From an uncultured archaeon (lineage in GTDB: Archaea; Thermoproteota; Nitrososphaeria; Nitrososphaerales; Gagatemarchaeaceae): a stretch of 64,000 nucleotides of DNA. Each line of letters begins with the position of its first letter. The first letter of the stretch is position 1. A program made the position numbers and the translations under genes. Shown here in pieces: positions 25,644 through 52,239 of this stretch. The DNA lies in the NCBI GenBank assembly GCA_963799775.1, contig CAWCYD010000003.1, positions 1,792,001-1,856,000 of the forward strand, given 5' to 3'. The notes beneath the pieces are model-generated. The model ran no database searches. It was not told the origin of the DNA and saw only the letters and a program-made list of their open reading frames with translations.

Positions 25644-25708
25644 GTGGCCGAGCCAAGCATTATAGCAAAATCTCAAAGACCTTAGAGCCCCTTTGTCGTG
25701 GTATTGCG

Positions 25709-31587: not shown

Positions 31588-32013
31588 GTGTCCAAGACAA
31601 TCGCATCAAAGGACGACCTAGCCTCGCGATTCGCCCGCTACTCGAAGGACCAGGCCCAGTTCGCGAAGGCCGTAGACGCCGTGTTCGGAGGCTCGGTGAA
31701 GAAGCACGTCTTCACGCCGAGCGGCAGGGCCATCTTCTCTGTGGTCGGGAGCAACGCCGACGAGTTCATCGACCCTGACAAGTCGTTCTGCTCGTGCGAG
31801 TCCTACTTCTACAGCGTCCTGAGCGCCAAGACCAGGCAATGCTATCATCTCCTCGCCTACAAAATCGCCTCCGAGTCGGGCCTGATTCACGAGGTCGAGT
31901 TCGACGACGAAGAGTACGACCTCTTCATGAGGCTCCTCGCGTCAGATGTCCTGCACTCGCGAGAGATAGGGAAGACGCCCAAGAAGAGGCAAGACTTCAC
32001 TTGGGAAAGCTAA
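31588..32013 (+). CDS. SWIM Zn-finger protein
   Basis: FCSCESY...CYHLLA. Confidence 0.8.
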   Translation: MSKTIASKDDLASRFARYSKDQAQFAKAVDAVFGGSVKKHVFTPSGRAIFSVVGSNADEFIDPDKSFCSCESYFYSVLSAKTRQCYHLLAYKIASESGLIHEVEFDDEEYDLFMRLLASDVLHSREIGKTPKKRQDFTWES

Positions 32014-32324
32014 AGCGTCCCTGCAACCCCTCACGCGAAAAGGGAAATCGACCCTTCATGCCGCGTTGGAAAAATTCCATGCAAGACTTATCAACAAAAC
32101 GTGAGAAGATAGCAATAGTGGATTCATGACCAAACTATGAATAAATAGATGCAAAGTCTAGTTGATTGAGTAAGGCCGTGACCTCTGAAACCCCAAAAGG
32201 CGGAATCGCTATGATATTGTCGCCGCAATCCTCATTGTGTTAGCATCCATGACCATAGGTCCGTGACCTTAGTTTCTTCTGATATTATTAGCCCCAAGTT
32301 ACTTCATGTTGGGACGATGTTCGA

Positions 32325-33530
32325 ATGATCCTCTCGAATCAGAATTCGTTCTTCAAGTCAAGGGGTCTCAATATCGGAATTATGATGGTGATTCTCACTC
32401 TTCTGCTGCTTTCTAGAGCATTGCCAGTAGGTGCCGTTGCATCTCCCACTTCTTTCTGCTCTCCTGCTGCGATAAACAGCGCCACCGAGGCCCTTGATGC
32501 TAATATCAACCAAGCAACAATCAAAGAGCATGCCACATCGACAGCTGCTCTGTACTCTTCCGTCTACAACGTCCAATACGAAGGCGTATTCTTCAACACA
32601 ACATGGAATTCTAGTTGTATCGTTTCTATGGATTACGTGGGGGCGGCCTATGCAATGACGGACAAGAACGGTGCTAACTTCGTCCTAGAAATCATCGAGA
32701 GCCCGTCCCTATCGTCTGTTCTTAATGTGACAATCTCTCCCTCAGTCTCGCACAGCATTTACAATGACAGCAGTGGGAACGGGGCCAAGTGGGCCGGATA
32801 CGAATACAATTCGGGAAACGGACTCGAGGAGACTGAAGCGGATTGGTCTGTCCCCGCAATCAGTGGCCCTGGCTACGATGGGTCTGGTACGAACACGTGT
32901 GATAATGGCCAAGACCAAACATACTCGAAATGCATTTACTCTTTCTGGGTTGGCGAGACCGAAGGCCCGGGAGGTTATAACAGCTCTTCAATCACAGGGC
33001 TTGCGCAGGGCGGTACCGATTCTGATTGCAGCAATAGCTGCGATGGCACCAGCAACGGCCCTGACACATACAACATGTGGATTGAATTCGTAAACAGCAC
33101 AAGGGATGACCGGCTACCTGACACCACAGATGTCGTAGGTTCTGGCGATTCCATACAGGCTTACGTAACCGTATTCCCAACCAACGACTACTACGTGAAT
33201 GTCCTTGACGAGCACTCGGGCAAGGCATGGTCTAGTTACATGCCTAACGGCTTCGGCATGGGCAAAGCACATTATGCCCAATTCATGGGCGAAACACCTG
33301 GTGGTTATTCTCTCCCTGACTTTTCAAGCTTCAGCGTTTCGGGAGCCGGATACTACGACGATAGCAGTAACTGGCACACCATCGGAAGCGGGTGGACGAC
33401 CGAGTACGTTCAAAACTATCCATCAGCCTATCAAACATGCAACAGTCAGTCTCACAAGTGGAACGTGTGCTCTGGTTCGGTCTCTAGTGGGGACTTCGGC
33501 CAGAGCTACCTTACAACTTCTGGCTATTGA
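32325..33530 (+). CDS. Secreted glutamic peptidase (G1/eqolisin-like), paralog 2
   Basis: WAGY, ADWSVP, SFWVG, LAQGG (Gln), WIEF, VGSGDSI, FMGETP (Glu), LPDF; colinear with 24447-25643. Confidence 0.72.
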   Translation: MILSNQNSFFKSRGLNIGIMMVILTLLLLSRALPVGAVASPTSFCSPAAINSATEALDANINQATIKEHATSTAALYSSVYNVQYEGVFFNTTWNSSCIVSMDYVGAAYAMTDKNGANFVLEIIESPSLSSVLNVTISPSVSHSIYNDSSGNGAKWAGYEYNSGNGLEETEADWSVPAISGPGYDGSGTNTCDNGQDQTYSKCIYSFWVGETEGPGGYNSSSITGLAQGGTDSDCSNSCDGTSNGPDTYNMWIEFVNSTRDDRLPDTTDVVGSGDSIQAYVTVFPTNDYYVNVLDEHSGKAWSSYMPNGFGMGKAHYAQFMGETPGGYSLPDFSSFSVSGAGYYDDSSNWHTIGSGWTTEYVQNYPSAYQTCNSQSHKWNVCSGSVSSGDFGQSYLTTSGY

Positions 33531-33647
33531 TATGTCAAACAAATCTGCCAAACCTGGATAATCAGAAAGTTGCCGTGATAGAGCAATCCATCTCAATCCT
33601 TTTCTAGACCATCCCCAATAAAATTCTAACACTGAAGCTGGTGGCCT

Positions 33648-34514
33648 TTGAACAGTCGAACCGGAATCGCCCTGCTCGTGATCGGGTGCCTAATTCTTGG
33701 TTCGATTGCAACATATCAACAGATTCTCATCACCAAATCACCAGAGATAGCGAAAACAGTCACGGCTACAATCTCTCAAACTCAGACGACGACAATCACG
33801 TTGTCCACTACCACTTCAGTAAACAACACAGTGATTGTTTCGGCGGCGAATCAAACCATAGCCTCGACCTTGGGGCCGAACGGGATAATGTTACTGACTT
33901 CTATCAATGCCACAACTCTTATTGTCGGGCAACAATTGGAGATTAGCGTTTCGCTCTTCAATTCACTCCCTAGAGTAAACAGCGTACCAACCGCGGCTGA
34001 CTGGCAATTTAGAGGCGTCCCACTTTCCTTGTGGCAGGATTGCGATGTAACTCCTGCCAAACCCAATGGGCAAATGGAAACATATGCTACCGAGGTAGTC
34101 GTGCTGCCGGGATACTATACAATCAGCAACATATCGACGGTCGCCAGTGTCTTACTTCCCACTCAAGCTTGTCATGGCTTATCGAGTATGATAGACCACG
34201 TTATTTTCCAGCCGACCAGCTCAACGGCAAATATTACCGGAATCGGTGGAGTGTCAGCGAGTGGACCGATTAACATGACCGCCGGTCCATTCCACACATC
34301 GAACAGCTTCACTACTCGCGGAAGTTGGGATCTTTCAAGTGCTTTGTCTCAGCTTTTGAACGGAAGTCAGCCAGCTATCATCACTAACAACAAACCCGAG
34401 CAAGCAGCTAATATTCCTCCCACAACGTCATTCTCTCCTGGGATATACACGATAGGAATCTCAGATGAATGGGGGCAGAATATCATTTTTCACTTCGACG
34501 TTTTGTCAGAGTAA
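33648..34514 (+). CDS. Membrane-anchored Thr-rich partner protein, paralog 2
   Basis: TM helix, Thr linker, GPNGIMLL...VSLFN...PGIYTIGISDEWG. Confidence 0.72.
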   Translation: MNSRTGIALLVIGCLILGSIATYQQILITKSPEIAKTVTATISQTQTTTITLSTTTSVNNTVIVSAANQTIASTLGPNGIMLLTSINATTLIVGQQLEISVSLFNSLPRVNSVPTAADWQFRGVPLSLWQDCDVTPAKPNGQMETYATEVVVLPGYYTISNISTVASVLLPTQACHGLSSMIDHVIFQPTSSTANITGIGGVSASGPINMTAGPFHTSNSFTTRGSWDLSSALSQLLNGSQPAIITNNKPEQAANIPPTTSFSPGIYTIGISDEWGQNIIFHFDVLSE

Positions 34515-34691
34515 TACAGACAGAAAGGAGGAAGTACGAGCACTTGTTTAATATTGTGTAAACAGAAGCTTGCTATCCCTGATTGGTTTCATTCGTGTCC
34601 AAAATATCACCATGACCTCTCAATCCCTAGGGGGAAGCTTCAACACGACGAGTTACAATAGGGCACCGAACCCGTAAATTTTGAAGATACG

Positions 34692-34792
34692 AGCCACAGA
34701 AGGGATTTGAACCCTCGACCTTCTGCTTACAAGGCAGTTGAGCCGAGAAGCATTCATTCTCGTATGCTCTAGCCAGGCTGAGCTACTGTGGC
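34692..34792 (-). tRNA. tRNA-Thr(TGT) with a 26-nt intron at 27/28
   Basis: GCCACAG/CTGTGGC acceptor; removing 34763-34738 gives TCTGC-CTTGTAA-GCAGA; BHB central helix GAGC/GCTC and intron hairpin CGAGAA/TTCTCG. Confidence 0.9.
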
Positions 34793-36244
34793 CCGAGCAC
34801 CCCCGCTTCTGATTCGGCTTAATCTCCTTTCCGTCAGTGACCTAGCAAAAAGGGCTCGGCAATCGACCGAAATCGCTTGCTTCGTATTCGGATAAGCAAG
34901 AGCAGCTGCCTTGTGACATCCTCCCGCGTTCTCGGAACGTGGGCTTTCAGCGGTTTGGTTTCCGCCTCTAGTTCCTGCTTCAACGACCGAGCTTGCAGCC
35001 CCAGTTGACCAGGGCCGTAGAGATCCGGTCTCCACAGGCTTGAGTTCGGGCGCGACCCGCCCAGGGTGCTCCTGAACGCGTCGAGGACCGCCACGGTCCT
35101 TGTCCCGCCCTACCTGAAGTATTCCTCTCTTCAGCACGACTCGACTAGCATTTCTGTCGCGGTCTAGAATCTTCTGGCAGCCCTTGCAAGGGAACTCGCG
35201 CACGTCCAACGACACTTCAGTGCGGGTTCCACATGACCAGCACTCTTGGGAGCTGAACGCCGGGGGCACTTTCACAAATATCTTCGCCGCCCGCGCTGCC
35301 TTGTATTCAACGAACTCCATGAGCTGGGCCCACGATGCATCCTTGATTGACTTGGCCAGGCTGTGGTTCCTTACCATGTTCCCGATACGCAAATCCTCGA
35401 AAGCCAGCAGGTCATGGTCTCTGACTAGTCTCGCGCTGAGCTTGTGGTTGAAATTCCGCCTCCTTCCGGATACCCTCGAGTACCGAGTTGCAAGTTCGAG
35501 CCGTGCCTTGTCTCGGTTCTTCGAGCTGGGTCTCTTGTTCGCCAGGCTCTTGTGAAGGCGGGCTAATCGCCTCTCAGATTTCCTAAAGAACCTCTGGGGC
35601 TCAACTCTCTCTCCATCGCTGGTGGTTATCAATGATTTCAGCCCCAAGTCAACACCTAGAGGCGATGTCCACGCTCTGGGGAGGGACACATCACATAATG
35701 GCATCCTGCTTTCGTACACCAGGCAAGCGAACCACTTGCCGTCCGGCTCGCGTTTGACTGTGCAAGTCTTGAGCTTCGCGCCCACCGGAACCGACCTGTG
35801 AATGACGACCTTGACATTGCCAATCTTAGAAAGATGTAGCCGATTCTTTTCGGTCTCGAGTTTGGCTCCGCCATTGTACGCCTGAGGATAGGTGAATGAA
35901 CCCCATCCACTGTGTTTCTTGAGTCCCGGGAACTTACCTTTGCCTCCGAAGAATTTCTTGAACGCCCTATCCACCCTCCTCAGCACGTCCTGGAGCGTCT
36001 GCATGTATAACGACCTCATCTCAGAGTTCTCTCTTACTTCGGTCGTAAGCATGAGACATTGCTGCCAGTAGGTTGTGGAATGTCTCTCTCCCTGCCACCT
36101 CGCCTTCCTGTCTTCAATGGCCATATTCCATAGACGGCGACAAACATCGACCGTCTCAATCATGCTCTTCTCTTGTCTTCTGTTCGGGTAGAGCCTAAAC
36201 TTGAAGACACTCCGAGCATTCAACTGGGAACTAACCCAAACCAA
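34769..36244 (-). CDS. tnpB: IS200/IS605-family TnpB RNA-guided nuclease, no TnpA in window
   Basis: FKFRLYPN, RuvC-I GVDLG, RuvC-II AFEDL, Zn finger CWSCG...CKGC, RuvC-III DRDRNA; ORF reads through the right end into the tRNA. Confidence 0.93.
   Translation of the reverse strand: MVWVSSQLNARSVFKFRLYPNRRQEKSMIETVDVCRRLWNMAIEDRKARWQGERHSTTYWQQCLMLTTEVRENSEMRSLYMQTLQDVLRRVDRAFKKFFGGKGKFPGLKKHSGWGSFTYPQAYNGGAKLETEKNRLHLSKIGNVKVVIHRSVPVGAKLKTCTVKREPDGKWFACLVYESRMPLCDVSLPRAWTSPLGVDLGLKSLITTSDGERVEPQRFFRKSERRLARLHKSLANKRPSSKNRDKARLELATRYSRVSGRRRNFNHKLSARLVRDHDLLAFEDLRIGNMVRNHSLAKSIKDASWAQLMEFVEYKAARAAKIFVKVPPAFSSQECWSCGTRTEVSLDVREFPCKGCQKILDRDRNASRVVLKRGILQVGRDKDRGGPRRVQEHPGRVAPELKPVETGSLRPWSTGAASSVVEAGTRGGNQTAESPRSENAGGCHKAAALAYPNTKQAISVDCRALFARSLTERRLSRIRSGGARATVAQPG
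34899..35115 (-). ncRNA. Predicted TnpB omegaRNA (scaffold plus about 14-nt guide); 5' boundary approximate
   Basis: Right-end hairpin GCCCACGTTCCGAGAACGCGGG followed by AGGATGTCAC (ends 34913); downstream flank AAGGCAGCTGCTCT is the predicted guide. Confidence 0.65.
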
Positions 36245-36247
36245 GCA

Positions 36248-36665
36248 TTAAGCACCCATGGAACGCCGAAGTTCGGCGAGAACTTTCCGAAGTTCCCCGC
36301 CCGACTGGGCAAGGAAATCTGCGTCCTTTAGGATCAGAGACAGAGTCGCAAGCTTATCCCGATTCTCATTGGGTGCCTCGATGAAGGCCCCGCAGACCAA
36401 CTTCGGCAGCGTGGCTTTTAGCAGCCCAAATCTGAGATTCATGTATGCAGCGCGTCGCCGTAGCTCCGAGAGAGCTGTTCCATTCCGCCTGCTGCAAGAA
36501 GTGCACTCGAGCACAATCCCACTTCCAAGAAACACCAGGAAATCCACAGAGATGCCCCTCTACGGGGTCGGAGGCCGAAGCTCGAACACATGGTGAGACG
36601 AAAGACAGCCGTTCCTCAATCAGGAGATTCCTGACCGACTCCTCTTGGAAGGTCAGGGGCATCAT
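36248..36665 (-). pseudogene. Small PD-(D/E)XK-like nuclease, disrupted by a frameshift and a stop
   Basis: Joined frames read QEESVRNLLIEERLSF..HHVFEL....*RGISVDFLVFLGSGIVLECTS; ends 4 nt before the tnpB start. Confidence 0.4.
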
Positions 36666-36877
36666 TGCATGAGTCCTCCTCATCCATGCGATTGACGTGA
36701 CAGTTTACACCTATGCTATACCTCCTAGGGCTATTTAACCACCCATAGAACAAGACATTATTCTGCCTCTGATTGATAAACGGGGCTAGATTCGAGCTTC
36801 TATCATTGGGACAAACAGGATGACATTGCCGCTTAATTGTGGCCTACCACATGGTGTAACGCGCAGGCGGTCTATCG

Positions 36878-37576
36878 ATGAAAGGGCTCATTGTTCTTGC
36901 GGAGGGAACAAGACAAGACTTTCTGACTGTCTTGATTGACCAATCGTCCTTTGGGCTGCAACTCAATCGAGTCCTTTGCGTCTCTGACAAAGAGGAACAA
37001 AACTCGGCGATTGAGAAGCGCTTCGAGGAGTTCGGATACAGGCCAGAATTCCTCTCCTATTCCGACTTGCGGAAAACCAATGCAATGACCGCGAGAGGCA
37101 AGTCAGTCCTCCTCATCTCACCAGCAGAGGCAATCAACGAGTCTGATGCAAGGGGCATGATCGATGGCGGACTGGTCAAACTGCTCACCAGCAAGATTTG
37201 GAGGAATGTTCTCGCGTTCCATGAGACAGACGCTCCTCTTGGCATCACCCAGGTCAGGGCCCTTGACCACCTGTCTGAGTGGATCTCCAGAGGAATCAAT
37301 GAACGGCCGAAAGCTTGGTTCTACGAAATCTTGCTAACGCTGTTGTATAGGAGGCACGAGAGTGTCAGAGGCCTTCAGCGACTACTTGCAAAATCAGTCT
37401 GGAGCCAGCTCGTCCGTACTGATACAGCATCCGCAATCAGACAAGCGCGCGCAGAATTTCTGCGAGAGAATCTCATCTCTGAACGAAAAGGCAGCCTCAC
37501 TTGCAGCGAATCCGGGCGGCGGGCAGTAGAAGATTACACCCCGTTTGACAAGATTGAGTGTCCCGGACACCCGTAA
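36878..37576 (+). CDS. Hypothetical protein with C-terminal Hel308/Ski2-like winged-helix domain
   Basis: EILLTLL...AEFLRENLISERKGSLTCSESGRRAVEDY resembles the Hel308 WH motif (L...g.I.......T..G...s..Y); no Walker motifs. Confidence 0.5.
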   Translation: MKGLIVLAEGTRQDFLTVLIDQSSFGLQLNRVLCVSDKEEQNSAIEKRFEEFGYRPEFLSYSDLRKTNAMTARGKSVLLISPAEAINESDARGMIDGGLVKLLTSKIWRNVLAFHETDAPLGITQVRALDHLSEWISRGINERPKAWFYEILLTLLYRRHESVRGLQRLLAKSVWSQLVRTDTASAIRQARAEFLRENLISERKGSLTCSESGRRAVEDYTPFDKIECPGHP

Positions 37577-39431
37577 GCCACGTGATATCGATGAGAACGG
37601 TCCACGTCCGGGTTGGGAGCCTGATGACGACTCTCGTGAGCGTTCTGACTATCTCGAGGAACTGGTTTCCGAGAGCATAGAGAGACATGGATGGGTGACT
37701 GTCAACGAGGTCGCCACAGCAGCAGTCGACAGTCGAGTGATGCCGACCCGATCGAATGCAAAGTCGCGGAGGATCCTGAAGAAGCTCGTCGCCAAGGGAA
37801 GGCTCGTGGAGTCTGTCTACAGGACTGGCGTGGGCAGGCCACGTCTGGTCTACAGGAGGCGAAACTCCACAGATGCGGCAGAAATCTTCGATAATTCTTG
37901 CGGTGATTGCGCGCTCTACTCTCCTGTCGTGAGGAGATGCAGGTTGTGGTTGGCACTTTCTAGATTCAATGCTCAGCAAGTCTACGAGAGGCAAGAAGAA
38001 CTATCGGCCATCGCACGAGACAAGCTGCGCAACTCCAACAGAAGGGTAGGGCCTACTGCCACGGCCTGCGAGATATTCACTCCCAAGAAAAAGGATTATC
38101 CCCTGTCACAAGCCCGGGACAAATGTGCATCCTGCGGGCAGGAGATTGATACTCCCGTGGCGAAGACCGTCAAGTGTCCCAAATGCCTGACCACGTACAA
38201 GCCCCTCGCAACGAAGATCCTGGTCCACTACGACTACGAACAGTTGTTCAAGGCGCGTTATACTAAGCTAGCAGGAGTGCCACCCCCAAGGCAGGCTCTC
38301 GTGCTTACGGAGCAGGAAGTTCGCGCAGGAAAGACTGACTGGCGCGACATCATCGTTCTCTACCCTGGCGAGAAAGTTAGGCTGGAGGCAGAGGGCATCC
38401 ATGTGGAGCGAAGAAAAGGACGCTTGGCGTTCGAGCCTTACAATCGCATTTACCAGATCATCGATTATGGGGCGCTTACTGACAGGATGATTTGCTCCCT
38501 GAAGGCCGAAGGACTCTCCGTATTGCAGGGGCGTCTCCAAGAGGGTCCCAAAGGGAGAACGTCGTTCCCACTTTACCCGTCGCTTGGATTCGTCGAGAAG
38601 CTGCGCTGGCTCGAGCAGAATTCTCCCCTCCGCAGAGAACTCCTCAAATCGATGATGCTCAGCACGATAGTCGCCACCAAGAGGATAGCGAGCCGCGGCG
38701 GGCCAGGATTGAAGGTCCTTGTGAACCGGCAACTCCTCGAATTCGCCCGGATGAACACGGATGCCGAAATCTCTGTAAGCAGAGCTCTCGCCTACGAAGC
38801 TCGGGCCAACCGCCTATACTGGAGTGCCTACAAGACGATGCTCAGGGTCTCAGGGCTGGGGTTCGAAAGCAGAGTGAGGGACAGATTCGTCAGGGAGATA
38901 GTGCAGAGCATTAGGGCAAGGGCTAGAGGATATTCTCCCGCGAACGCTGCGATAAACTATCTCCACCAGAGGAGACTGCTCTTGTGTCGTCTCGCTAACG
39001 CGAGGACCGCCATCGGTTGGGTCGGATGCGAGGGAATACTCCACGTCGCGAAGAGGGAGCCAAGCATAGGCCTCTTGCTAGACCTCAGCGACTCTTTCAA
39101 GCTGGCTGATAGGGAGAGCTTCCTGAACGCGACGCTTCACATCGAGGTGACAAGGGACGATTTTGTTGCCCGTCTAGGAAGGCAGAGGACCTGGTTCTAC
39201 TATCCGACCCAGGAGGCAGTCGGCAAACTCGATTTGTATGGCTCACACGCCGACCAGTTTCACGTCGTCTATCGAGGTAAGAACATGACCTTGACTGGAG
39301 CTTATGATGAGCTACTAACCTCATTCATCGAGGCCGTAGAGAATTCTGACCTGACTCGTTTCTACCCATTTGTCTATGGCGGCGAAGAAGACGCAATGTG
39401 GCTCGAGAGTATGGATTCTGAGAGAGAATGA
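37545..39431 (+). CDS. cas1: Solo Cas1-family integrase with N-terminal wHTH and Cys/Zn domains
   Basis: Cas1 beta domain (IIVLYPGEKVRLEAEGIHVE...PYNRIYQII) and catalytic domain YEARANRLYW, FESR, PANAAINY, GILH, LLLDLSDSFK; N-terminal wHTH, CGDC...C, CASC...CPKC. Confidence 0.8.
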   Translation: MTRLSVPDTRKPRDIDENGPRPGWEPDDDSRERSDYLEELVSESIERHGWVTVNEVATAAVDSRVMPTRSNAKSRRILKKLVAKGRLVESVYRTGVGRPRLVYRRRNSTDAAEIFDNSCGDCALYSPVVRRCRLWLALSRFNAQQVYERQEELSAIARDKLRNSNRRVGPTATACEIFTPKKKDYPLSQARDKCASCGQEIDTPVAKTVKCPKCLTTYKPLATKILVHYDYEQLFKARYTKLAGVPPPRQALVLTEQEVRAGKTDWRDIIVLYPGEKVRLEAEGIHVERRKGRLAFEPYNRIYQIIDYGALTDRMICSLKAEGLSVLQGRLQEGPKGRTSFPLYPSLGFVEKLRWLEQNSPLRRELLKSMMLSTIVATKRIASRGGPGLKVLVNRQLLEFARMNTDAEISVSRALAYEARANRLYWSAYKTMLRVSGLGFESRVRDRFVREIVQSIRARARGYSPANAAINYLHQRRLLLCRLANARTAIGWVGCEGILHVAKREPSIGLLLDLSDSFKLADRESFLNATLHIEVTRDDFVARLGRQRTWFYYPTQEAVGKLDLYGSHADQFHVVYRGKNMTLTGAYDELLTSFIEAVENSDLTRFYPFVYGGEEDAMWLESMDSERE

Positions 39432-39930
39432 CAGGCGTTGAAAACTCATTCTGCCAAAATGATATCATCGCGACCAGTGGCGGCACCAGCGAACGCACTT
39501 GCAATTAGTCAGGGCGCGGCTGTTGCTCTCGCCGAGGCCTCTACAATATTCGTACAACATACTGCAAACTCGAAAGTCAGCTTCAGTCCCTATTTCTCCA
39601 AAGTCGTCGGGCTCGGATGCTCGGTCCGTTCACAATCACAGTCGACGCGCAGATAACCTACCAACTCGTGAGCAATACCTGGCTAATGCACCAAGAGGTC
39701 TGGAATTTTGTCAGCTTCCATAGCCAGAACACGGGCGGCTGGCCCACTTTTCCCCCCAATGGCAAATCGTCGGCCCTCCGCTTCCGCAGCACTATTCTGA
39801 GAGCCCATTCAAGAACTGGGTCTACTTCGATGGGGGCGCTGCCGCAGCAACGCTTCTGGCAGGATACCTCGCGACGATCCCCATCTTCGTCTACATCAAG
39901 AAGCGAAAACGCGTTTAGTCGCCAATATGG

Positions 39931-40371
39931 TTACTTTAGTGACTTCAGTGTCTTGAGGGCTTCGTAAGCCGAGGTAACCACCGCCGCGGAAATGACAGCA
40001 AGTGCGAAGACGAACAGCGGGGAAATCGTCGCTGGTCGTAAGAAAATCAACATAACTAAGAGGGATGTGAGGAAGAACGCAATATAGGCTACCTGGGTAG
40101 GAATCGCGAGTCGTTTGAATCGGATTACGTTATCAAACACAACCCTGTCGATGATGTAACCTTCTTGCACCTCCTTAACCAGTCCGAGTTGGAGCAATTT
40201 CTTTACATGATACTGAGCAACCGAAATCGAACTCAAACCTAGGTCTCGTTGGATTTCCCCAGTCCGGATAGGCTCGCCCGCCTTGAATATGTAGCGATAT
40301 ACTCTAAGAGTCGTTCCCTTTAATGATTCGCGAGAATCCTCTGACTGAGACTCGAACTCCGTCATACTCAC
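39931..40371 (-). CDS. HTH regulator with two C-terminal TM helices
   Basis: LKGTTLRVYRYI...EIQRDLGLSSISVAQYHVKKLLQLGLV plus two TM helices. Confidence 0.8.
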   Translation of the reverse strand: MSMTEFESQSEDSRESLKGTTLRVYRYIFKAGEPIRTGEIQRDLGLSSISVAQYHVKKLLQLGLVKEVQEGYIIDRVVFDNVIRFKRLAIPTQVAYIAFFLTSLLVMLIFLRPATISPLFVFALAVISAAVVTSAYEALKTLKSLK

Positions 40372-40480
40372 GCAATTATCATTTGTCTTATATGCCTAAA
40401 CATTAGGTATGAGTTCGATTTACAACCTAAACAATAGGTAGATGCACTGGCCTTCGTCATACCACAACGGCGAGGACCAA

Positions 40481-41089
40481 ATGTCAGAATTTAGAAAGGA
40501 AATCGCGATAGGTGTCACGGTTGCGGTCGTAGTTGCCACAGCATTGGCCATTGCTTCAATCTCATCATTTTCTGGCCCATTAGGAGCCGCTTCCAGTAAT
40601 CCGAGTCAAACGTTGGTCGAGTCGCAGACTACGACATACATTTCACAATCACAATCATCCGTAACCATTTTCTCTAGTCAATCACTTTCCGGACCGCAAT
40701 ATCACCTGACATTCCAAGTTCTGGGAACATGCAATTCGAGCACAATATACTTGCCATGGGGCGTGACCATCTGGAATTCAACGATGAATAATCAGACCGA
40801 AAGCGTCCCAACAGGCACGCCTCTCGCAGAACTAGAGCAAGTTTCGGGGCTTCCGCCAGCGGCGGTCAATGGTTCAACGCAATCCACTACTACAATCACT
40901 GCGAGTTTCACCGGAAGCTCAGTAAGCAAACCGACCACCTTGCAAGACATGATAAACTTCACGCTCCCCGTAGGCACCTACTATTATCAGACGTATGGTC
41001 TGTCGATGGCGGAACACGGGACTGTGATTGTGAATGGAACATCGCAAGTCATTCAAATCCAACCACTCATACCGTGTTATAGCAAGTGA
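40481..41089 (+). CDS. Membrane-anchored Ser/Thr-rich protein
   Basis: N-terminal TM; LTF...PWGVT...INFTLPVGTYYY...GTVIVNG resembles thermopsin C-terminal-type repeats. Confidence 0.65.
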   Translation: MSEFRKEIAIGVTVAVVVATALAIASISSFSGPLGAASSNPSQTLVESQTTTYISQSQSSVTIFSSQSLSGPQYHLTFQVLGTCNSSTIYLPWGVTIWNSTMNNQTESVPTGTPLAELEQVSGLPPAAVNGSTQSTTTITASFTGSSVSKPTTLQDMINFTLPVGTYYYQTYGLSMAEHGTVIVNGTSQVIQIQPLIPCYSK

Positions 41090-41218
41090 TATTTTCAGGC
41101 TGCTTTGGCTTACTATGTAATTGAATTCTGTCTTCTAGACCTGTAATTTTTCCTTATAGTTGAAGCATGAACCGAAGTCCGCATAGAAATATATCATTAC
41201 AAACGCAAAAAGCTGCTG

Positions 41219-42430
41219 TTGCATCGCCCCATCGCAGCATCAATTCTTCTCGCTCTTTTCCTAACATTGCCATTAGGATTTGTGGCATCTGCTTCGACGG
41301 GGTCTTGGAACGGCCTGCCTACTTGGGCAAGGCTGCCTACGGTTCCACCTCCGATTGATGGTAAGCCGACTTGCTGGATTTTGAGTAACGGAGCATGGGT
41401 GGTTAATCCAGACGATTGCGTTCCCGTACCGCAAAATCTTATCCCCACTGAGGGAGGATTGCACCATCCCATTTACGGAGTCGACGATAATTTCATCGAA
41501 AGAGCCGCAACCTCAGTAGATGTGTCTCAATATAGCGGAGAATATGACAACCGTACAAATACGGCCGGAACCTACAGTGTTCAACTCAACACAAATATCT
41601 TTGTTGGCAATCTTTATGGGAGCAATGGGGATGAAGACTGGGACCAATTTGTTTTTCAAAATCAGCCCAATGTCCTCACTGACGAGTGTATAGTTCAGTG
41701 GGACTTATCGCAAAGCACATCACAACCTTTAGCTTATCCTGATAGCTACTGTCAGACGATTTCCCAGCAACTTCCGCTTGAAACTGCCTTCCAGGTGGTC
41801 GTGCAGGGATCTGCTACTAGTGGTTATCTTAGTGTCACTGTTTCTGCGCCGAGCTATACCCCGACTGCACTCTCGTTGACCGATGTTCTCGGTTTGGAGT
41901 ACGACAATTGGGGAACCACTTCAGGTACCATACTTGGCGCCGGGCTTTCGTCAACGGCTGATTTCTATTCTCCAGCCACGGTGTACACCGATGTTGGCAC
42001 TTATTCGAGCAACGAATACTATTCGCAACAGTCCGATACCAACACCGGTGAGATGAACAACCTGTATTACACATCTACGGGCCCTGCTGGTTGTGACACC
42101 AATTACGTCTGCTGGGAAGACACAGTGTCAAGCACTAGTTCGGGTGGTGGTTCGTTAAACCTGAATGTGAACTCGGTAAACTATAACACACAGTCTCCGA
42201 TTACTGGGTACTACACGCAACTTGACGATTCCAGCTATAATGAGCTTAGTTATGGTTATACGCCGACCACATACAGCGTGACCTACGGGAGTAACTATCT
42301 TGTTTATGCTGATGGCTATGGAAACTGCAACTTCTACCAGTGGTCTGATGGAAGCACATCGATGCCCCATCCTGTCACCCCGTATGGGGATACTACTCTC
42401 ACTGCGGAGTACACTGGCAGCAGTTGCTGA
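41219..42430 (+). CDS. Secreted protein, possibly protease-like, with C-terminal beta repeat domain
   Basis: Signal peptide; YSVQLNTN...WDQFVFQN; C-terminal YGNCNFYQWSDG...LTAEY. Confidence 0.65.
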   Translation: MHRPIAASILLALFLTLPLGFVASASTGSWNGLPTWARLPTVPPPIDGKPTCWILSNGAWVVNPDDCVPVPQNLIPTEGGLHHPIYGVDDNFIERAATSVDVSQYSGEYDNRTNTAGTYSVQLNTNIFVGNLYGSNGDEDWDQFVFQNQPNVLTDECIVQWDLSQSTSQPLAYPDSYCQTISQQLPLETAFQVVVQGSATSGYLSVTVSAPSYTPTALSLTDVLGLEYDNWGTTSGTILGAGLSSTADFYSPATVYTDVGTYSSNEYYSQQSDTNTGEMNNLYYTSTGPAGCDTNYVCWEDTVSSTSSGGGSLNLNVNSVNYNTQSPITGYYTQLDDSSYNELSYGYTPTTYSVTYGSNYLVYADGYGNCNFYQWSDGSTSMPHPVTPYGDTTLTAEYTGSSC

Positions 42431-42601
42431 GTATCCTCGCGGCTCCGCCCAAGACTCACTGGTAGGGTCAAGAAGAGACGGACTGTCTCCTCGGACTCTA
42501 TTCTCGAGGCTCAGAATCGGCTTGCAAATCGCACTATCCACAGATTCCCTGTTGGCCCAAAGATAATATCAATCCAATCTCGCAAGGTCCTCGTCACCGC
42601 C

Positions 42602-43411: not shown

Positions 43412-45836
43412 CTAGTTTTTGGAGGCCCGGACCGCCTTGTGCGGCTTTTGGATGTGGTGCATCCTCTCCAGGTCGGGGAGATAGGGCCTCAGCTTGGTGG
43501 GCACCTTGGCTTCGATCGGTTCCCTGAGGCTCACTCCCTTGTCCCGCTTGGCCTTCCAGATCTTCTCGTCGAACTCGATGATCGCTGGCCCGATGCCCTT
43601 CGCTGCCTTACGTTTGTCGGGCTTGGGGAACGTCTCGAGGTGAATCGTGTGCTGCCCGTACAGCCTCCTCCAGATGTGGTCTGTGATGTGCGGCGTGATC
43701 GGGGCTACCAACAGCAAGACGGATTTCATCACGTGGTGGAGCGTGAACCTCGCCGCGTCGCGGTCATCCTTGGAGACCCCGTCCCCGTAGGCCCGCCCCT
43801 TGACCATCTCGATGTAGTGCGCCGCGAAGACGTTCCAGACGAACTCCCGTATCTTCGTCGCCGGCACGAACCCGTTTCCATCCTCGTAACCCGCAACACA
43901 CTCTCGTATCAACACGTTCAGTTCCGAGATGATCCAGACGTCGGTCGGCGTCAGCTTCGCCCTCTTCGGCTCCTGGAACGTCGCGATGAAGCGGCCCGTG
44001 TTCCAGAGCTTGGTGAGGAACTTGCCCGCCCCGGCCACCCTGTCCTCTGACAGCCTAAAGTCGTAACCGAGGTTCGCCTCGGCCGCGCCCCAGAATCGGA
44101 AGGTGTCCGTCCCGTACTTCTGCAGGAGCGGCTCCGGGTCCATGAAGTTCCCGAGGCTCTTGCGCATGGCCCTCCCCTGGGCGTCCTGCCCGAGGCCTCC
44201 GACCCACGCGTCGCTGAAGGGAGCCTTTCCCGTCAATAGGTAGCACCTGAGCAGCGAGTAATACAGCCAGGTCCTGACGATGTCCTTGCCTTGGAGCCTG
44301 AGCGTCGTGGGATAGGTCAGTTTGTGGAACTTTGGGTTCTTCGTGATTTTGGTAATGTAGAGCGCGGAGATGCTCGAGTCCATCCAGGTGTCGAACGTGC
44401 GGGCCTCTCCCACGAACCTCGTGTTGGCACACTTCACGCACTTTTTGAACGGGGCGGGGTCCCTTCCACGGCCTGTAATACTTCCCGGGCTTTGGCAGGT
44501 GCGGCGTCCCACATTTCCCGCAATACCAGATCGGAATCTCCGTGGCATAGTAGCGCCGCCGTGAGATGGGATAGTCCGTGGTGAGCGAGTTCATCCAGTC
44601 GAGTAGGATCTGCCTGTGCATCGGCGGGTGGAACTTGATCTGCTTCGCGAGCTTCTTCAGCGTGGGCACGAACTGGAGCTGCTTGAGGTAGAACTCCTCC
44701 ATCGGGATTATCTCGATGGGGGTGTGGCTCCTCTCGCACAGCGGCGTGCGGTGCTGCACCTGCTCGACCTTGACCGCTATCTTGGAGTCCTGGAGGTGCC
44801 TGAATTATCTGGGAGCGGGCGTCCTTCACCGCCATGGCGACATACTTCCCTGTCACGGCTGTCATCTTCCCCTCTATGTCGATTGCCTGGACCTCCTTGA
44901 GGCCGAACTGCCTGAATAGCTGGACGTCGTTGTAGTCGCCGTAGCTGCAGACCATCAGGACGCCGGTCCCGAAGGTCGGGTCGACGCTCTTGTGCGTCTT
45001 TATCGGGCACCTCGATGCCGTATACTGGGACCACGGCGGTCTTCCCCACGACGTCCTTGTATCGCTCGTCAGCCGGGTTCACCACTACGAGTTGGCACGC
45101 CGCGAGCAGCTCGGGCCTCGTGGTCGCGACCTCGATCTCGGCCCCGGTCTCCTTGACCTTGAACCTGTTCGTGACCAGGTATGTCGGGAGGTTCATCGTA
45201 TTCTATCTCGGCGTCGGCTATCGTGGTCCCGCAGTCCGTGCAGTAGTTGTTGGGCCTCGTCGCGATGTGGACCAGGCCTTTGTTCCAGAGCTCGATGAAC
45301 GACCACTGGGTGAGCGTCCTGTACTCCTCAGAGTCGGTCCTGTACTTTTCCTTGAAGTCGCCCGATATCCCGAGCCTCTTCATGAGGTCCACCATGTATT
45401 GCTCGATGTCGTCGAGCGCGTGCTTGCACAGGCCGATGAACTCGTCCCTGGGAGTCTTCCGCATCTGGATCCTGTACTTGCGCTCGGTGGCGATCTCCAC
45501 CGGCAGCCCGTTCCTGTCGATCCCCACGGGATAGAGGACGCTCAGCCCCCTCATCCTCGCCGCCCTCGCGACCATGTCTATCTGCGCGTACTGGGTGAGC
45601 GCCCCGGGGTGCCACGGTCTCCCTGAGGGGTAGGGAGGCGGCGTGTCCATCACAAAGTTGCGTTTCTTGTTGCTATTCGGTCTGAATATGAAGATATCTT
45701 GAAGGCTCCAGATTCTGCGAATCTCTTCTTCGAGCAGAGGGTTCCAACTGGTCGACTCTAGCTTGTTGGGTAGGGCTGCTGTCGCGGGAGCTGCTTCCCG
45801 CCTCGGCTCCCCCTGGGTCTCCAAAACTCCGTTCAC
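43412..45836 (-). CDS. valS: Valyl-tRNA synthetase, split by about four frameshifts
   Basis: DTPPPYPSGRPWHPG, ATTRPELL, MVCSYGD, ISRRRYYATEIP, FDTWMDSS, QGKDIVRTW, MRKSLGN across five ORFs. Confidence 0.9.
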
Positions 45837-45919: not shown

Positions 45920-46723
45920 CTATCGCTTTTGGGTGTAGACCCCGTTGGTCTTCACGTATCTCACATCTGAAAGGGGCGGCTTTGAGTAGAAGCTCTCGTC
46001 GACCACACCCGCCGTCTTGAACGCCAAGGCCCTCCTTCGGCAATTTGAGCACCAGCCGCAATGGACCGGGTATTTCTTCCCGGCGATCGTCTTGAAGCTG
46101 TGGCCGGTGTAGCAGGAGTAGGTGTAGCGCCATGGGACGCCGAGCTCGTCTCCCAGCTTCACGAGCTTGTCCTTGTCGTAGGTGATCAGCGGCGCCAGAA
46201 GCTTGTAGCCCCCATGATGGGTCGCCTGCTCGCCTAGCCTGTTGATCTCCTCGAGGAACTCCGGAGTGTTGTCCTTCATGGCCACAGGCGTCTCCCTCCT
46301 TATCCCGATGTAGACGTCGAACCTCTCCTTCGTCGAGATGAAGAAAGACTCTGCGTGCGCGAGGCCTGTGAGGAGGAGCAGGGCGTTCCTGCATGGGCCC
46401 CACCACTTTAGAATCCTGTCGCGGGCCTTCTTCGAGTCCCAGAGGTCCTCGGGCCTGGTCTCGGGAACCGGCTTCTCCGCGTGAGTGAGCAGCGAGGTGC
46501 TAATCCCGCCGAGCCACCTCATCTCGATGAGCTTGAGAGGGACGCCCAGGTCCTTTGCGACGTGTTTGATGCAGAACTCCTCGTAGGTGTATGCCCTCTG
46601 CCCATAGTCGCAGAATATCAGGACCTGGTGCTCCGGTTTGATGACCTTCTTGACGTAGTACGCGAGGGGGACCGAGTCTGCTCCCCCCGAGATCATGCAG
46701 ATAGCGCTCCTGTTCTTGCCCAA
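45920..46723 (-). CDS. queC: 7-cyano-7-deazaguanine (preQ0) synthase
   Basis: SGGADS, DYGQR, RN, TYSCY...CGWCSNCRRR. Confidence 0.88.
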   Translation of the reverse strand: MGKNRSAICMISGGADSVPLAYYVKKVIKPEHQVLIFCDYGQRAYTYEEFCIKHVAKDLGVPLKLIEMRWLGGISTSLLTHAEKPVPETRPEDLWDSKKARDRILKWWGPCRNALLLLTGLAHAESFFISTKERFDVYIGIRRETPVAMKDNTPEFLEEINRLGEQATHHGGYKLLAPLITYDKDKLVKLGDELGVPWRYTYSCYTGHSFKTIAGKKYPVHCGWCSNCRRRALAFKTAGVVDESFYSKPPLSDVRYVKTNGVYTQKR

Positions 46724-46755
46724 ACTTTCAGCTCCCTCTTCGAACGAAGTTCATA

Positions 46756-47262
46756 TCAGTTCGGGAACCTTCTTTGCAGCACGCCGAGCCTCTTGACTGC
46801 CTTGTAGAAGACGTAGCCCAGGACCGCCGTCGCTATGAAGACCCCGAGAGTCACTTGCGGTATCTCCACTGACAGTGGGAGCTTGAACGCGTAATTGAGC
46901 GCGTAGCTCACCGTTATCCCAAGTGCGATGGAGTAGAGCGCCAGCCCGAGGAAGACGCTCTTGCTGCGAAGTTTCCACAACACCAAGGAGAACACGAAGG
47001 ACGGAATCACGTTGAGCAGGTCGATAGGCCCTAGCGGGTCGCCTAGCGCCGGCTGGTTGGCGATGAAGACGCCGAGCGCCTGCCCGATCACCGCGGGCCA
47101 CCCTATGAGGGGGACCAGGCCGATGAGGATGTTCGCCACGCGCAAGTTGATGACGCCGTAGCTGATCGGGTTGAAGAGAAGCGCGAGCACGACATAGAGC
47201 GCCGCATAGACGGCTGCCGTCGCTATCAGGACGCTCCTTCTGGGGCTTCTCGTTGTATTCGT
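46756..47262 (-). CDS. queT: QueT family transporter (start uncertain, possibly non-canonical)
   Basis: SVLIATAAVYAALYVVLALLFNPISYGVINLRVAN...GVFIAN...LGPIDL; conserved N-terminus lies upstream of the first GTG (47190). Confidence 0.8.
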   Translation of the reverse strand, partial: TNTTRSPRRSVLIATAAVYAALYVVLALLFNPISYGVINLRVANILIGLVPLIGWPAVIGQALGVFIANQPALGDPLGPIDLLNVIPSFVFSLVLWKLRSKSVFLGLALYSIALGITVSYALNYAFKLPLSVEIPQVTLGVFIATAVLGYVFYKAVKRLGVLQRRFPN

Positions 47263-47442
47263 TGTTTCTCTCTCCTCCGACCCGGGGTTTCTAGAGGCGG
47301 AACGGGGGGAGGCCCACTCACCCGCCTACCGCGGCCTGAAGTCGTGATTGTTATAACGCTTCTCAGGAATGTCTCGGGTTCATCCTCTCCTGGCTGCGAG
47401 CAAATCAGAATGATTTTATGGTACCCAAGTACCAGAGTACCC

Positions 47443-47694
47443 ATGCCCCAGCTGAAGTTCGTGGTAGAGGATCAGCTTCTCAAGAAGTTCAAGCAGATAG
47501 TGATCAAGAAGCACGGCAAGATTGACCTTGCCCCAGAGGGCGAGGAAGCAATCAGATTATACATCAAGAAGTATGAAGACTTGGAACAAGCTCAAGAAGA
47601 AAACGACACGCTCCTCGCTGCCATAGGCGCGTTGCGCACGGGCAAGACCAGGAGCGCGCTTAGAGATCTGAGGGAGCTGGAGTCGAATCCTTGA
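47443..47694 (+). CDS. Putative antitoxin (VapB-like)
   Basis: Small RHH-like protein overlapping the start of the PIN gene. Confidence 0.6.
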   Translation: MPQLKFVVEDQLLKKFKQIVIKKHGKIDLAPEGEEAIRLYIKKYEDLEQAQEENDTLLAAIGALRTGKTRSALRDLRELESNP

Positions 47695-48098
47695 TCTTCG
47701 TGGACACGACAATCTGGGCATCCGCAATCGATGCCTCCGACTCGCTCCACGAGGATGGCGCTGCTGTGCTGAAGGCATTGGCCGAGGGCCAGCTCGGTGC
47801 CGCTTTGACCACCGACTTTGTCCTAGATGAAACCTTGACACTTCTAAAGGCAAGAGGCGGACGAGCGGGCACAATCGTCAAAGCAATCTCCAACATTATC
47901 TCGTCCCCAAGCCTCAACATTTCGTATGTAGACGAAGTCCTCTTCAACACAGCACTCTCAACGTATGAGAAGTATGAGCGGCTTAGCTTCACTGACGCAG
48001 TCACACTCACGATCATGCAACGAAAGAAGGTCAAAGAGATATTTTCTCATGATGACCACTTTGACATCAAAGGAATCATCAGGAAGGAAAGACCCTGA
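47691..48098 (+). CDS. vapC: PIN-domain toxin (VapC)
   Basis: MIFVDTT, VLDETL, LSFTDA, IFSHDDHF. Confidence 0.9.
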   Translation: MIFVDTTIWASAIDASDSLHEDGAAVLKALAEGQLGAALTTDFVLDETLTLLKARGGRAGTIVKAISNIISSPSLNISYVDEVLFNTALSTYEKYERLSFTDAVTLTIMQRKKVKEIFSHDDHFDIKGIIRKERP

Positions 48099-48273
48099 AG
48101 AGTCTCTCGAGACAGGCAATCATTTAGTCGTTCGACCGCTAATCACAGACGATGTGTTTCCTTCAAGGACGGGGCCTGCCAGAAGCATTCTGTCGAAGTG
48201 ACGCACTACCAAGTGTGCGATGACTGGCAGAGGAATGCGAGCCTACCGACCGAGATAGTCTAGGGAGCCGCGA

Positions 48274-48588
48274 CTAGGATCCGGCTGCATTGCCTGCGGA
48301 GCTCGAGCTGCTCCCACCCTTCCCAGTCAACTGAGGCAGGGCTGAAGCGCCCAACAGGATAGCCACCACGCCGCTCCAATCCAAGAAGATGCCGCCTAGG
48401 TCCGAAGACTTCCAACTAATCGAAGGGACGAAGAATGGGACGGCAATGATCAGAAGCAACCCCCCGACCGCATATGCCAAGAGCACGCCCACCTCCTGTA
48501 GCGAGAGGCTAAACGACAAGCCCTGGGTTATGGGCAAGCTCTTCTGAAGGGCGGCTGCGCTCGCTAGAACCATGCCATAGGCGGCCAT
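48274..48588 (-). CDS. Small membrane protein
   Basis: Hydrophobic helices; may be joined to 48509-48730 by a frameshift. Confidence 0.45.
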   Translation of the reverse strand: MAAYGMVLASAAALQKSLPITQGLSFSLSLQEVGVLLAYAVGGLLLIIAVPFFVPSISWKSSDLGGIFLDWSGVVAILLGASALPQLTGKGGSSSSSAGNAAGS

Positions 48589-49657
48589 GGACCTTGTCGT
48601 TGGCTTGGTCCCCCTTCAGAGCCTCTGCCTTCAGGGCAGTGCTGACAGACTCCACTATGGCGTCTAACTCGTCTTGTGACTTGACGACGATCTTCGTGGT
48701 TTGCTTGACGCTCTGCATCCGGAATGGCAATTGCTTCCCGACTCTTCTCGGCGACTTCGAACCGGGTTGGAAAAGAAAAAGTTCGGGGAGCGAGGTTTCC
48801 GCTTACCCCGCGCCCGCGCCGCCGGCTACTTCGGCGAGGGGCGACAAGTGGATGCCGAATGCCGCAGCCACAGCCGCCGCGCCCGCCATTGCCATCATTC
48901 CGTACCGAATCTTCTGATCGAGGGTCATTGTAGGTCACTGGGATGCATAGCTGTTCTCAAAGTCTTCAAGCTACTGCGAAAGAGAGGATTCGACCCTTTC
49001 ATCTGGCAACTTGCGCTTTCGCACAGGAATAGCGGGCACATTCACATAGCGATTGTAACCGACTGGAACGACTACCGATACATTTGTGGATGCTGTAAGG
49101 AGGCACAGAAGCCAATTCGCAACAAGAGAGGAGGCGGGTCGATGTTTAGGGTTTGCAATTGCAGAGATTGTGTCGCTTGCGACCCAGACATTCGGATAGA
49201 CATGGAACAAATCACGCGGGCACGATAAGCCACCCACGCTGAAACACCTCGAGAGAACAGGCCTTACCACCCAGAGACGAGATAATGTCTGAGGCAGAAG
49301 CTAAAGGACTAAGTAGTTCTTGACGATGAAACCATCAGGATGAGTCTAGCCGACCGCATGAGTGAAGAATTCATCAATAGGGTTCAATCCCTTGTGGTGG
49401 ACAATATCGCCCAAGCCGTCCTGACTCTCATCATGGGATGTCTAGCGGTATCGCTATTCATAATCGCTGGCCTTCTCCAGTTCGCATCAGACCTCGATAG
49501 AATTGGAAGGGCTCGAAGCCCGACAGGTTTCGCCTTATCATCCTTGGACTCGTTCCTAGATTACCTCGGACTCAGGTAGCTCTGTCGCTTCGCACAACGA
49601 AGTTAACATAATCCAGGGCGCGCGTCGTTTATTATTCGGGCCGGGGTCTGGGCCTGA

Positions 49658-49924: not shown

Positions 49925-49972
49925 GCGGGACTCATCTCTGATGAGCAACGGTTTTATCCCTCAGAAGCAATT

Positions 49973-50371: not shown

Positions 50372-50413
50372 GGGCTCAGAGAGTCAGAATTCAGCCAGTC
50401 CTCTGAATCATTC

Positions 50414-52220: not shown

Positions 52221-52239
52221 TTCTTTCTTCCAAGGAGGC

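Follow-up and report, generated by a model that had tools for sequence, protein, structure and literature searches.

A Cas1-family gene with a conserved, predicted nuclease-fold partner, apart from CRISPR arrays and casposons, in soil Nitrososphaerales

What might a Cas1-family protein do in a chromosome that offers it neither a CRISPR array nor a casposon? Two working contexts are known for Cas1, the capture of spacers together with Cas2 and the integration of casposons, besides an inactive 'solo' group. The question is raised by a gene in a 64,000-nucleotide stretch of DNA, hereafter the window, from an uncultured archaeon of the Nitrososphaerales (C3:1792001-1856000, in an assembly of 2.47 Mb on three contigs, 81.7% complete). 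An original prediction, made from the letters of the window, described an open reading frame (ORF) at 37545-39431 on the forward strand as a solo Cas1, possibly a site-specific integrase, bearing a winged helix-turn-helix (wHTH) and cysteine clusters. The analysis reported here indicates that this ORF is part of a longer gene of the Cas1 superfamily, that it has a conserved neighbour, termed c2, with a predicted nuclease fold, and that the family to which it belongs is set apart from the CRISPR Cas1 and casposase-like proteins with which it was compared.

The predicted ORF (P0001; 628 residues, TTG start) is not a complete gene, because its homologues are longer and the ORF directly upstream corresponds to their N-terminus. 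The 38 relatives found among 5.8 billion clustered proteins are mostly 776-926 residues in length. An 861-residue homologue, P0003, is used as the full-length reference for numbering; P0001 aligns with its residues 255-859 at 78% identity and in a single frame, and the adjoining 232-residue ORF (P0040; 36878-37576, forward strand) matches its residues 1-241 at 65%. On these alignments the predicted ORF is the C-terminal three quarters of one gene of approximately 860 residues, at 36878-39431, with the true coding start of the second piece probably near 37558. The two pieces meet at a frame break near 37557-37575, a segment that contains two CCC runs and is one base longer here than in two intact relatives. 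This is the single break within the 2.55 kb of the gene, the remaining frame being open. Such breaks are frequent elsewhere in the assembly: 10 of 34 gene regions need at least two frames with every query (orthologues in related loci), and a single-copy class I aminoacyl-tRNA synthetase gene (43448-45776, reverse strand) is recovered by tblastn as five pieces in three frames. For these reasons the break is judged most likely to be an assembly indel, and the one-base interruption of the Cas1-like gene is probably an error of assembly. A more general implication is that, in long-contig metagenome-assembled genomes (MAGs) with indel errors, an oddly 'short' protein may be part of a longer one.

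Assignment to the Cas1 superfamily is based on several profiles. Residues 270-543 of P0001 match the Pfam hidden Markov model (HMM) Cas_Cas1, PF01867, over positions 2-263 of 283 (E 4.7e-7; 29.7 bits, cut-off 22.3), which places the Cas1 domain at 38352-39173 on the forward strand. The match to the NCBIfam equivalog TIGR00287 is weak (22.2 bits, under its cut-off of 71.7), and several homologues, P0003 and P0036 among them, have no Pfam match at E<=0.1, yet are matched by PADLOC Cas1 models (E 1.2e-7 for P0003). A profile of the family also matches the Cas1 of A. fulgidus in the PDB (4n06) at E 0.0011, with the E/H/D/E positions aligned. As had been claimed, the motifs stand in Cas1 order: AYEARA, containing E418 (codon 38796-38798); EGILHVA, containing H500 (39042-39044); and LLDLSDSF, containing D513 (39081-39083) and D516 (39090-39092), all on the forward strand. 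In E. coli numbering, the catalytic residues of Cas1 are E141, H208, D218 and D221 (PMC4046053). All 16 family sequences aligned match the E/H/D/(D or E) columns of 24 canonical Cas1 and four casposase-like proteins, and in an alignment of 32 full-length homologues E650, H732 and D745 of P0003 are invariant, while D748 is retained in at least 90%. This agreement goes well beyond chance. The sequence reads as that of a Cas1 superfamily member with a complete catalytic tetrad, and a two-domain Cas1 fold is predicted from the extent of the HMM match.

The remainder of the protein is arranged, as judged from its sequence, in the order N-terminal domain, probable wHTH, four-cysteine cluster, zinc-ribbon-like CxxC...CxxC, Cas1 domain and C-terminal tail. 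The wHTH and cysteine modules had been placed in the N-terminal ~265 residues; they belong instead to the middle of the protein, approximately 230 further residues being encoded upstream in P0040. This upstream region comprises an N-terminal domain of apparent alpha/beta type and a helical region, with P82, G93 and D96 invariant (alignment A3), and has no Pfam, NCBIfam or PDB sequence match. A relationship of this domain to helicase RecA or winged-helix domains was considered and dropped: the ESM Atlas lead reached a TM (template modelling) score of 0.37-0.44 on a low-confidence model, and hhalign against P0094, a helicase-bearing Asgard relative, gave nothing.

The putative wHTH occupies residues ~36-103 of P0001 (37650-37853, forward strand). 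Its sequence pattern and conservation (W282, T284, P331 and Y335 of P0003 in the 32 homologues) fit the original proposal; Pfam HTH models have no match on either P0001 or P0003; in the distant relatives P0075 and P0109, Pfam wHTH matches do lie ahead of the Cas1-like part. A wHTH is regarded as probable. Both proposed cysteine modules were located. The first, CxxC-x9-C...C, comprises C119, C122, C132 and C175 (37899-38069; C351, C354, C364 and C407 of P0003) and is kept in the Asgard relatives. The second, CxxC-x13-CxxC, comprises C194, C197, C211 and C214 (38124-38186; C426, C429, C443 and C446 of P0003) and has weak PDB profile matches to the ribbon of RNA polymerase subunit P (E 0.22). All eight cysteines, encoded on the forward strand, are invariant in the 32 homologues, which would be in keeping with metal binding. 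Following the Cas1 domain, a conserved C-terminal extension (FYYP...ADQ...PFVY; 39174-39428, forward strand) has P786, L794, A801, D802 and Y819 invariant and P840 and F841 nearly so (P0003 numbering, same homologues), and can be aligned in the Asgard relatives as well.

No partner of CRISPR adaptation or of casposons was detected. Cas2 (PF09827, E<=1) was not found in the 2.47-Mb, 81.7%-complete genome, nor did a k-mer scan reveal a CRISPR-like array anywhere in it; between 30 and 46 kb of the window there are no arrays and no convincing terminal inverted repeats (TIRs). Among 40 sister genomes Cas2 occurs in one, which lacks the family, and it is present in none of the ten family-positive genomes sampled. 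The sole family B DNA polymerase (PolB; PF00136) lies at C3:450-454 kb, 1.38 Mb away, no protein-primed PolB (PF03175) was found in the genome, and the neighbour clusters of 23 loci of the family contain no polymerase among the proteins scanned. At all 15 loci tested, no TIR scored above shuffled sequence within 500 bp of the c2/Cas1-like pair, more distant ends lying beyond the scan. The view that the gene stands outside a CRISPR or casposon context, with no cas2, array, PolB or TIRs in the window, therefore holds, and for Cas2 and arrays it extends to the genome as assembled.

It was also proposed that the protein represents a distinct Cas1 lineage, and phylogenetic comparison agrees with this. 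Leaving aside the N-terminal domain, the wHTH-Cys-Cas1 core can be aligned with large proteins from Promethearchaeota, Helarchaeota and Heimdallarchaeota MAGs (hhalign 99.2% with P0094 and 99.7% with P0090). A quick IQ-TREE run on 54 rows and 346 columns comprised 16 family members, ten of these Asgard proteins, 24 Thermoproteota Cas1 and four casposase-like sequences. The last are Nitrosopumilaceae proteins of approximately 340 residues, two of which lie 4-5 kb from a gene for a protein-primed PolB (PolB_2). The 26 family and Asgard rows share a long branch of their own, split from the 24 CRISPR Cas1 and four casposase-like rows with a Shimodaira-Hasegawa-like approximate likelihood ratio (SH-aLRT) of 100; nesting within either set, on which the original prediction would have foundered, is thus not seen. 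The family itself forms a clade (SH-aLRT 89), which divides into three subclades. The sampling of this tree stops short of casposase families 2-4 and of Cas1-solo group 1, and its long branches make the deep placement unsafe. With these bounds, the tree points to a small, deep-branching Cas1 lineage set apart from the sampled CRISPR Cas1 and casposase-like proteins.

The family has an accessory and patchy distribution within one soil and peat family of Nitrososphaerales. Its profile matches 14 of 36 other genomes of the same taxonomic family, none of 24 from other families of the order, and three of 400 genomes sampled across the phylum, these last weakly. An exhaustive HMMER search against 1.84 billion representatives yielded 76 matches at E<=1e-3, and the listed rows that were checked contained no ordinary Cas1. 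Every relative that carries a name belongs to a Nitrososphaerales or Thaumarchaeota MAG, the sources being soil, peat and the like. The genome studied here carries three copies, that in the window included. An intact paralogue of 916-920 residues lies 30 kb upstream of the window (C3:1761963-1764713, reverse strand), and a type-A paralogue in four pieces lies 60 kb upstream (C3:1731214-1733742, forward strand).

The description of the gene as solo stands only with respect to cas genes. A gene of approximately 145 codons, c2, lies directly upstream and divergent at 36248-36695 (reverse strand); it is itself frame-broken near 36600-36616 and is recovered by tblastn in two frames. A neighbourhood survey, of the kind originally suggested, found c2 by HMM in the same upstream, divergent position at 20 of 23 loci, the other three being fragments or at a contig edge, so that the Cas1-like gene is not alone, though it is without cas partners. 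All three copies in the genome adjoin a c2 of their own. Across ten loci, pairwise identity in c2 varies together with that in the Cas1-like protein (r 0.70; Mantel test, 1 of 2000), which fits inheritance of the two as a unit, with the exception of locus L016. The two genes hence constitute a conserved module, to which a variable third gene is attached.

The 205 homologues of c2 include none with a Pfam family, and its own sequence has no match in the PDB, in Pfam (PD-(D/E)xK families included) or among the PADLOC Cas4 models; in the ESM Atlas there is just a lead of 0.89 to PDDEXK_11. An AlphaFold2 model of the homologue P0171 (predicted local distance difference test 94.7, predicted TM 0.88) gave eight Foldseek matches in the PDB at E<=1e-3. 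The R2 retrotransposon endonuclease (RLE), Can2 and NucS are among these eight, and the fold relatives also include Mus81/XPF/Hef, Bax1 and XisH-family proteins (2inb and 2okf, TM 0.58/0.64-0.65); all are taken here to be domains of the restriction-endonuclease-like, or PD-(D/E)xK, fold. According to this model, c2 has a PD-(D/E)xK nuclease fold with a restriction-endonuclease-like alpha-beta-beta-beta-alpha-beta core. Invariant residues of the family are E19, D50 and E62.

How these observations are best combined is less certain, but the balance tips, by a modest amount, towards an active Cas1 transesterase lineage that forms, together with c2, an accessory module manipulating DNA in a defence-like or selfish manner, and that belongs neither to CRISPR adaptation nor to casposons. 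In such a module the Cas1 domain would act as a DNA transesterase, nicking and joining strands or cleaving branched DNA, and the protein's own DNA-binding modules would guide it to sites on the DNA. The role of c2 would be to prepare or resolve DNA ends, as Cas4 does for Cas1, and the whole would operate as an accessory defence-like or selfish system.

Several observations weigh against this proposal. The motif lysine is missing from c2, in which the triplet that begins with E62 ends in T or W, giving ECT or ECW in place of ExK; catalysis by c2 is uncertain for this reason, and the protein may instead be a non-catalytic DNA binder. Its sequence also shows no similarity to the PD-(D/E)xK domain of the Asgard relative P0097 (hhalign probability 0.5%). 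A role in defence has no direct support, as PADLOC recognises nothing beyond the Cas1 domain. In the window the Cas1-like gene and its c2 are both frame-broken; among public reads, one soil run carried 19% of the sampled words, but its five short contigs miss position 37557. Some relatives from assemblies of many contigs, G412 and G423 being examples, are plainly in pieces, which implies that decay of copies does happen. Finally, residence in a variable island, as described below for the module, says little by itself, because a neighbouring island of approximately 9.8 kb, at 46716-56530, varies similarly without any Cas1-like gene. The latter contains around a dozen small ORFs and is represented by approximately 107 bp in the related locus L033 and by approximately 1.1 kb in L027.

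The third gene is tightly spaced behind c2 in the same direction, and its type differs between loci. At seven loci it is c1, an HTH plus LAGLIDADG-like family that matches PHROG 5046 (E 6.7e-21), a profile that covers the LAGLIDADG region as well. Only one third gene, of 517 residues at L015, exceeds the cut-off of 22.5 bits for PF14528 (LAGLIDADG_3), at 24.8 bits; the family c57 falls slightly short at 21.6 bits, and c24 and c18 were assigned through a motif seen by eye. An HNH-like family, recognised by its motif and a weak NinG match, occupies the position at three loci, a family with no assignment at three more, and a single such gene at one. In the window the position is held by a TnpB gene of the IS605 OrfB type (34769-36244, reverse strand), which starts 3 nt past the c2 stop. 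It has Pfam matches to OrfB_IS605, Cas12f1-like_TNB (a zinc ribbon) and HTH_OrfB_IS605, is matched by the PADLOC Cas12f models, and may have been co-opted into the module. The genome has approximately eight other diverged tnpB-like regions, none of them a close DNA paralogue of this single, diverged copy, and the closest relative for which DNA sequence is at hand carries a LAGLIDADG-like gene in its place. The 3-nt gap leaves no space for the left end of an insertion sequence, TnpB being solo here.

A tRNA-Thr gene (anticodon region UGU; 34692-34792, reverse strand; matched by Rfam RF00005 at 45.4 bits, its gathering score being 29) adjoins the tnpB gene, whose 3' end overlaps its 5' part. It matches the tRNA-Thr(TGT) of L033 and contains an insert of approximately 30 nt at a position other than the anticodon loop; ARAGORN missed it. 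Integration targeted to tRNA genes was considered and rejected, given that a tRNA gene abuts the window copy alone.

The module lies within a variable island of 10.6 kb, delimited at 31976-42600 by blastn against L033, where it is replaced by 843 bp. Conversely, an island of 7.8 kb in L033, which holds that relative's own c2 and Cas1-like gene, stands where the window has 106 bp. The GC content of the window's island is 0.47-0.55, compared with ~0.58 in its flanks. Its junctions contain only 9-mers at chance level and neither target-site duplications (TSDs) nor TIRs, and those of the L033 island contain no repeat of at least 9 nt.

Several other features lie in or near the island. A 19-nt inverted repeat, 95% complementary (39625-39643 and 41020-41038), brackets an HTH_20 gene and most of a gene for a 215-residue secreted protein; the idea of an invertible segment was abandoned, as no comparable repeats lie downstream at 12 other loci. 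The HTH_20 protein (146 residues; 39931-40371, reverse strand) lies downstream of the Cas1-like gene, is weakly matched by PADLOC (E 3e-4) in the part of Csa3 that forms its wHTH, and is not conserved at other loci. Pairs of secreted, Ser/Thr-rich, cysteine-containing proteins (~400 and ~288 residues), with no Pfam match, are encoded at 24447-26506 and 32325-34514, and also at 40442-42430. Such pairs recur near Cas1-like modules at several loci; their families c25 and c15, however, are found at seven and 12 genome loci, mostly elsewhere, and their proximity was put down to the coincidence of island residence.

The island suggests one alternative to the favoured reading, namely a mobile element, unrecognised until now and not synthesising its own DNA, of which the module would be the recombinase core; the island would resemble a casposon but lack PolB. 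Its insertion at specific chromosomal sites would then fall to the Cas1-like protein, with c2 and the homing-endonuclease-like gene cutting or preparing the target. Consistent with this, each paralogue type has its own site, present or absent among relatives as the 843 bp in L033 and the 106 bp in the window illustrate; the island is of lower GC; the family occurs patchily, in several copies that are often decayed; nucleases of the LAGLIDADG, HNH and TnpB types are typically selfish; the island includes a tRNA gene; and casposons, too, carry HNH nucleases (PMC4046053). What is missing are the traces that such insertion would leave. TIR scores equal those of shuffles at 15 of 15 loci, and junction repeats are either absent (L033) or at chance level (the window). 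Protein identity between the copies of the genome is only 30-78%, and their DNA similarity is confined to coding parts; no sign of recent movement is seen. Furthermore, several genomes have the type-B locus between unchanged neighbours (L10e ... c3-c6-c7), a collection of 2.9 million viral contigs yielded no relative, and nearby islands vary without a Cas1-like gene. Recent mobility is not supported, though ancient mobility is conceivable, and an unrecognised element of this type is considered unlikely. The 'site-specific integrase' of the original prediction remains an inference; no integration scars, TIRs or TSDs were found.

A second alternative, similarly doubtful, concerns the window copy rather than the family: it may be a dead gene, with real frame breaks in both members of the pair and with TnpB having displaced the third gene. 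That both genes are broken, that the other type-A copy of the genome is in four pieces, that fragmented members occur in further assemblies and that TnpB sits where the closest relatives carry a LAGLIDADG-like gene are all compatible with decay. The same breaks are also those that the assembly would produce, however, at a rate of approximately 10 in 34 genes, an essential aminoacyl-tRNA synthetase among them. The Cas1-like gene has one break in 2.55 kb, positioned at CCC runs; elsewhere its frame stays open, with 78% identity to a homologue that is intact.

The third alternative is that the protein is a factor in DNA repair or at replication forks, in which the Cas1 domain cuts branched DNA with the help of the PD-(D/E)xK protein; in the Asgard version, a helicase and an Mre11-like phosphoesterase would also take part. 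The Asgard relatives speak for this proposal. Their N-termini differ, being a DEAD helicase in P0094, a Cas4-like PD-(D/E)xK domain in P0097 and other regions elsewhere, and the first of these is a fusion of a helicase to the core. One metagenome contig with an Asgard-type relative (L074:2196-8825) contains, in the same direction, genes for a helicase of 760 residues with DEAD, Helicase_C and MrfA Zn-binding domains, a calcineurin-like phosphoesterase (Metallophos) of 288 residues and the Cas1-like protein of 1155 residues. In addition, c2 resembles in fold such repair nucleases as NucS/EndoMS, Mus81/XPF/Hef and Bax1, the Cas1 nuclease is reported to act on branched substrates (cited in PMC4046053), and the type-B locus is syntenic between genomes. 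Against it, 22 of 36 sister genomes lack the family, as do all 24 genomes searched from the other families of the order, and the family is multi-copy with pseudogene-like fragments. Homing-endonuclease-like neighbours and lower-GC islands are accessory traits and not those of core repair. On this evidence a repair role is improbable.

An ordinary CRISPR adaptation Cas1 or casposase, with its Cas2, array or PolB elsewhere or in the unassembled 18% of a genome that is just 81.7% complete, is very unlikely and largely refuted: although two Joint Genome Institute records label relatives 'CRISPR/Cas system-associated endonuclease Cas1', 2.47 Mb are without Cas2, array or protein-primed PolB, none of ten family-positive sister genomes has Cas2, and the family, with an architecture approximately 2.5 times as long, branches outside the 24 CRISPR Cas1 and four casposase-like sequences.

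An active, accessory Cas1 and c2 module thus remains the favoured reading, and it can be extended, tentatively and with less confidence than the reading itself, to a third functional branch of Cas1: a chromosomal three-gene system, array-less and polymerase-less, the core of which is common to Nitrososphaerales and Asgard archaea. Its parts would be a self-targeting Cas1 integrase or nuclease with a wHTH and two zinc modules, a dedicated PD-(D/E)xK partner, and an exchangeable slot for a 'targeting nuclease', filled by LAGLIDADG or HNH proteins or, in the window, by TnpB. DNA would be cut and joined at sites chosen by protein, or by RNA in the TnpB case; possible uses are homing or integration, or else a defence in which invading DNA is recorded or destroyed with no CRISPR array involved. 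Because the core is common with Asgard fusions to helicase and nuclease domains, the family is relevant to how the adaptation machinery arose and diversified. It offers a concrete and testable candidate for Cas1 roles outside CRISPR and a possible scaffold for a protein-targeted DNA integrase.

Comparison with known systems helps to delimit the family. In common with CRISPR Cas1 (PF01867; 4n06 of A. fulgidus) it has the domain family, as identified by HMM and profile, and the four catalytic positions. Unlike CRISPR Cas1, it occurs without Cas2, an array or other cas genes, in its own genome and in positive sister genomes; it has approximately 500 extra N-terminal residues with cysteine clusters, as well as a C-terminal tail; and a long branch separates it from the 24 Thermoproteota Cas1. 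Casposases are similar in being Cas1-family enzymes without Cas2 and outside arrays. Some of them bear an HTH, and casposons bear HNH nucleases (PMC4046053; PMC8464041). The present family differs from them in having no nearby PolB, TIRs or TSDs, in the N-terminal position of its putative DNA-binding modules, which include two cysteine clusters, and in branching apart from the four ~340-residue Nitrosopumilaceae proteins of family-1 type, the comparison being with these and not with casposase families 2-4.

Stand-alone cas1 genes have been described before as Cas1-solo group 1 (Makarova 2013; Krupovic 2014), apparently vertically inherited, without a link to CRISPR and reported from Methanomicrobiales only; in the account given in the relevant part of PMC4046053, these lack the full set of active-site residues. 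The family shares with this group a stand-alone Cas1 without CRISPR and, as far as that description allows the two to be compared, differs in keeping all four residues and in its Nitrososphaerales hosts. The sections consulted of Krupovic et al. 2019 (PMC6563490) mention Cas1 in casposons and CRISPR-Cas only.

For the Asgard archaea, diverged Cas1 homologues were reportedly described by Makarova et al. in 2020 (CRISPR J), a work known here through the papers that cite it, PMC8730458 among them. The literature searched, outside which that work lies, contained no description of such an architecture in Nitrososphaerales. The Asgard homologues included in the present analysis differ in their N-termini and in having a helicase and a Metallophos protein as neighbours.

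The pairing of Cas4 with Cas1 in CRISPR adaptation, along with the XisH-type PD-(D/E)xK proteins that are accessory to site-specific excision, provides the remaining parallel, since in c2, as in the Asgard protein P0097, a protein or domain predicted to have the PD-(D/E)xK fold is tied to a Cas1-family enzyme; c2 differs from both Cas4 and P0097 in sequence, and in the missing motif lysine. In sum, the lineage differs from spacer-capturing Cas1, from casposases and from the inactive solo group alike, in combining an apparently full active site, probable DNA-binding modules of its own, a fixed partner of predicted PD-(D/E)xK fold and a linked set of other nucleases.

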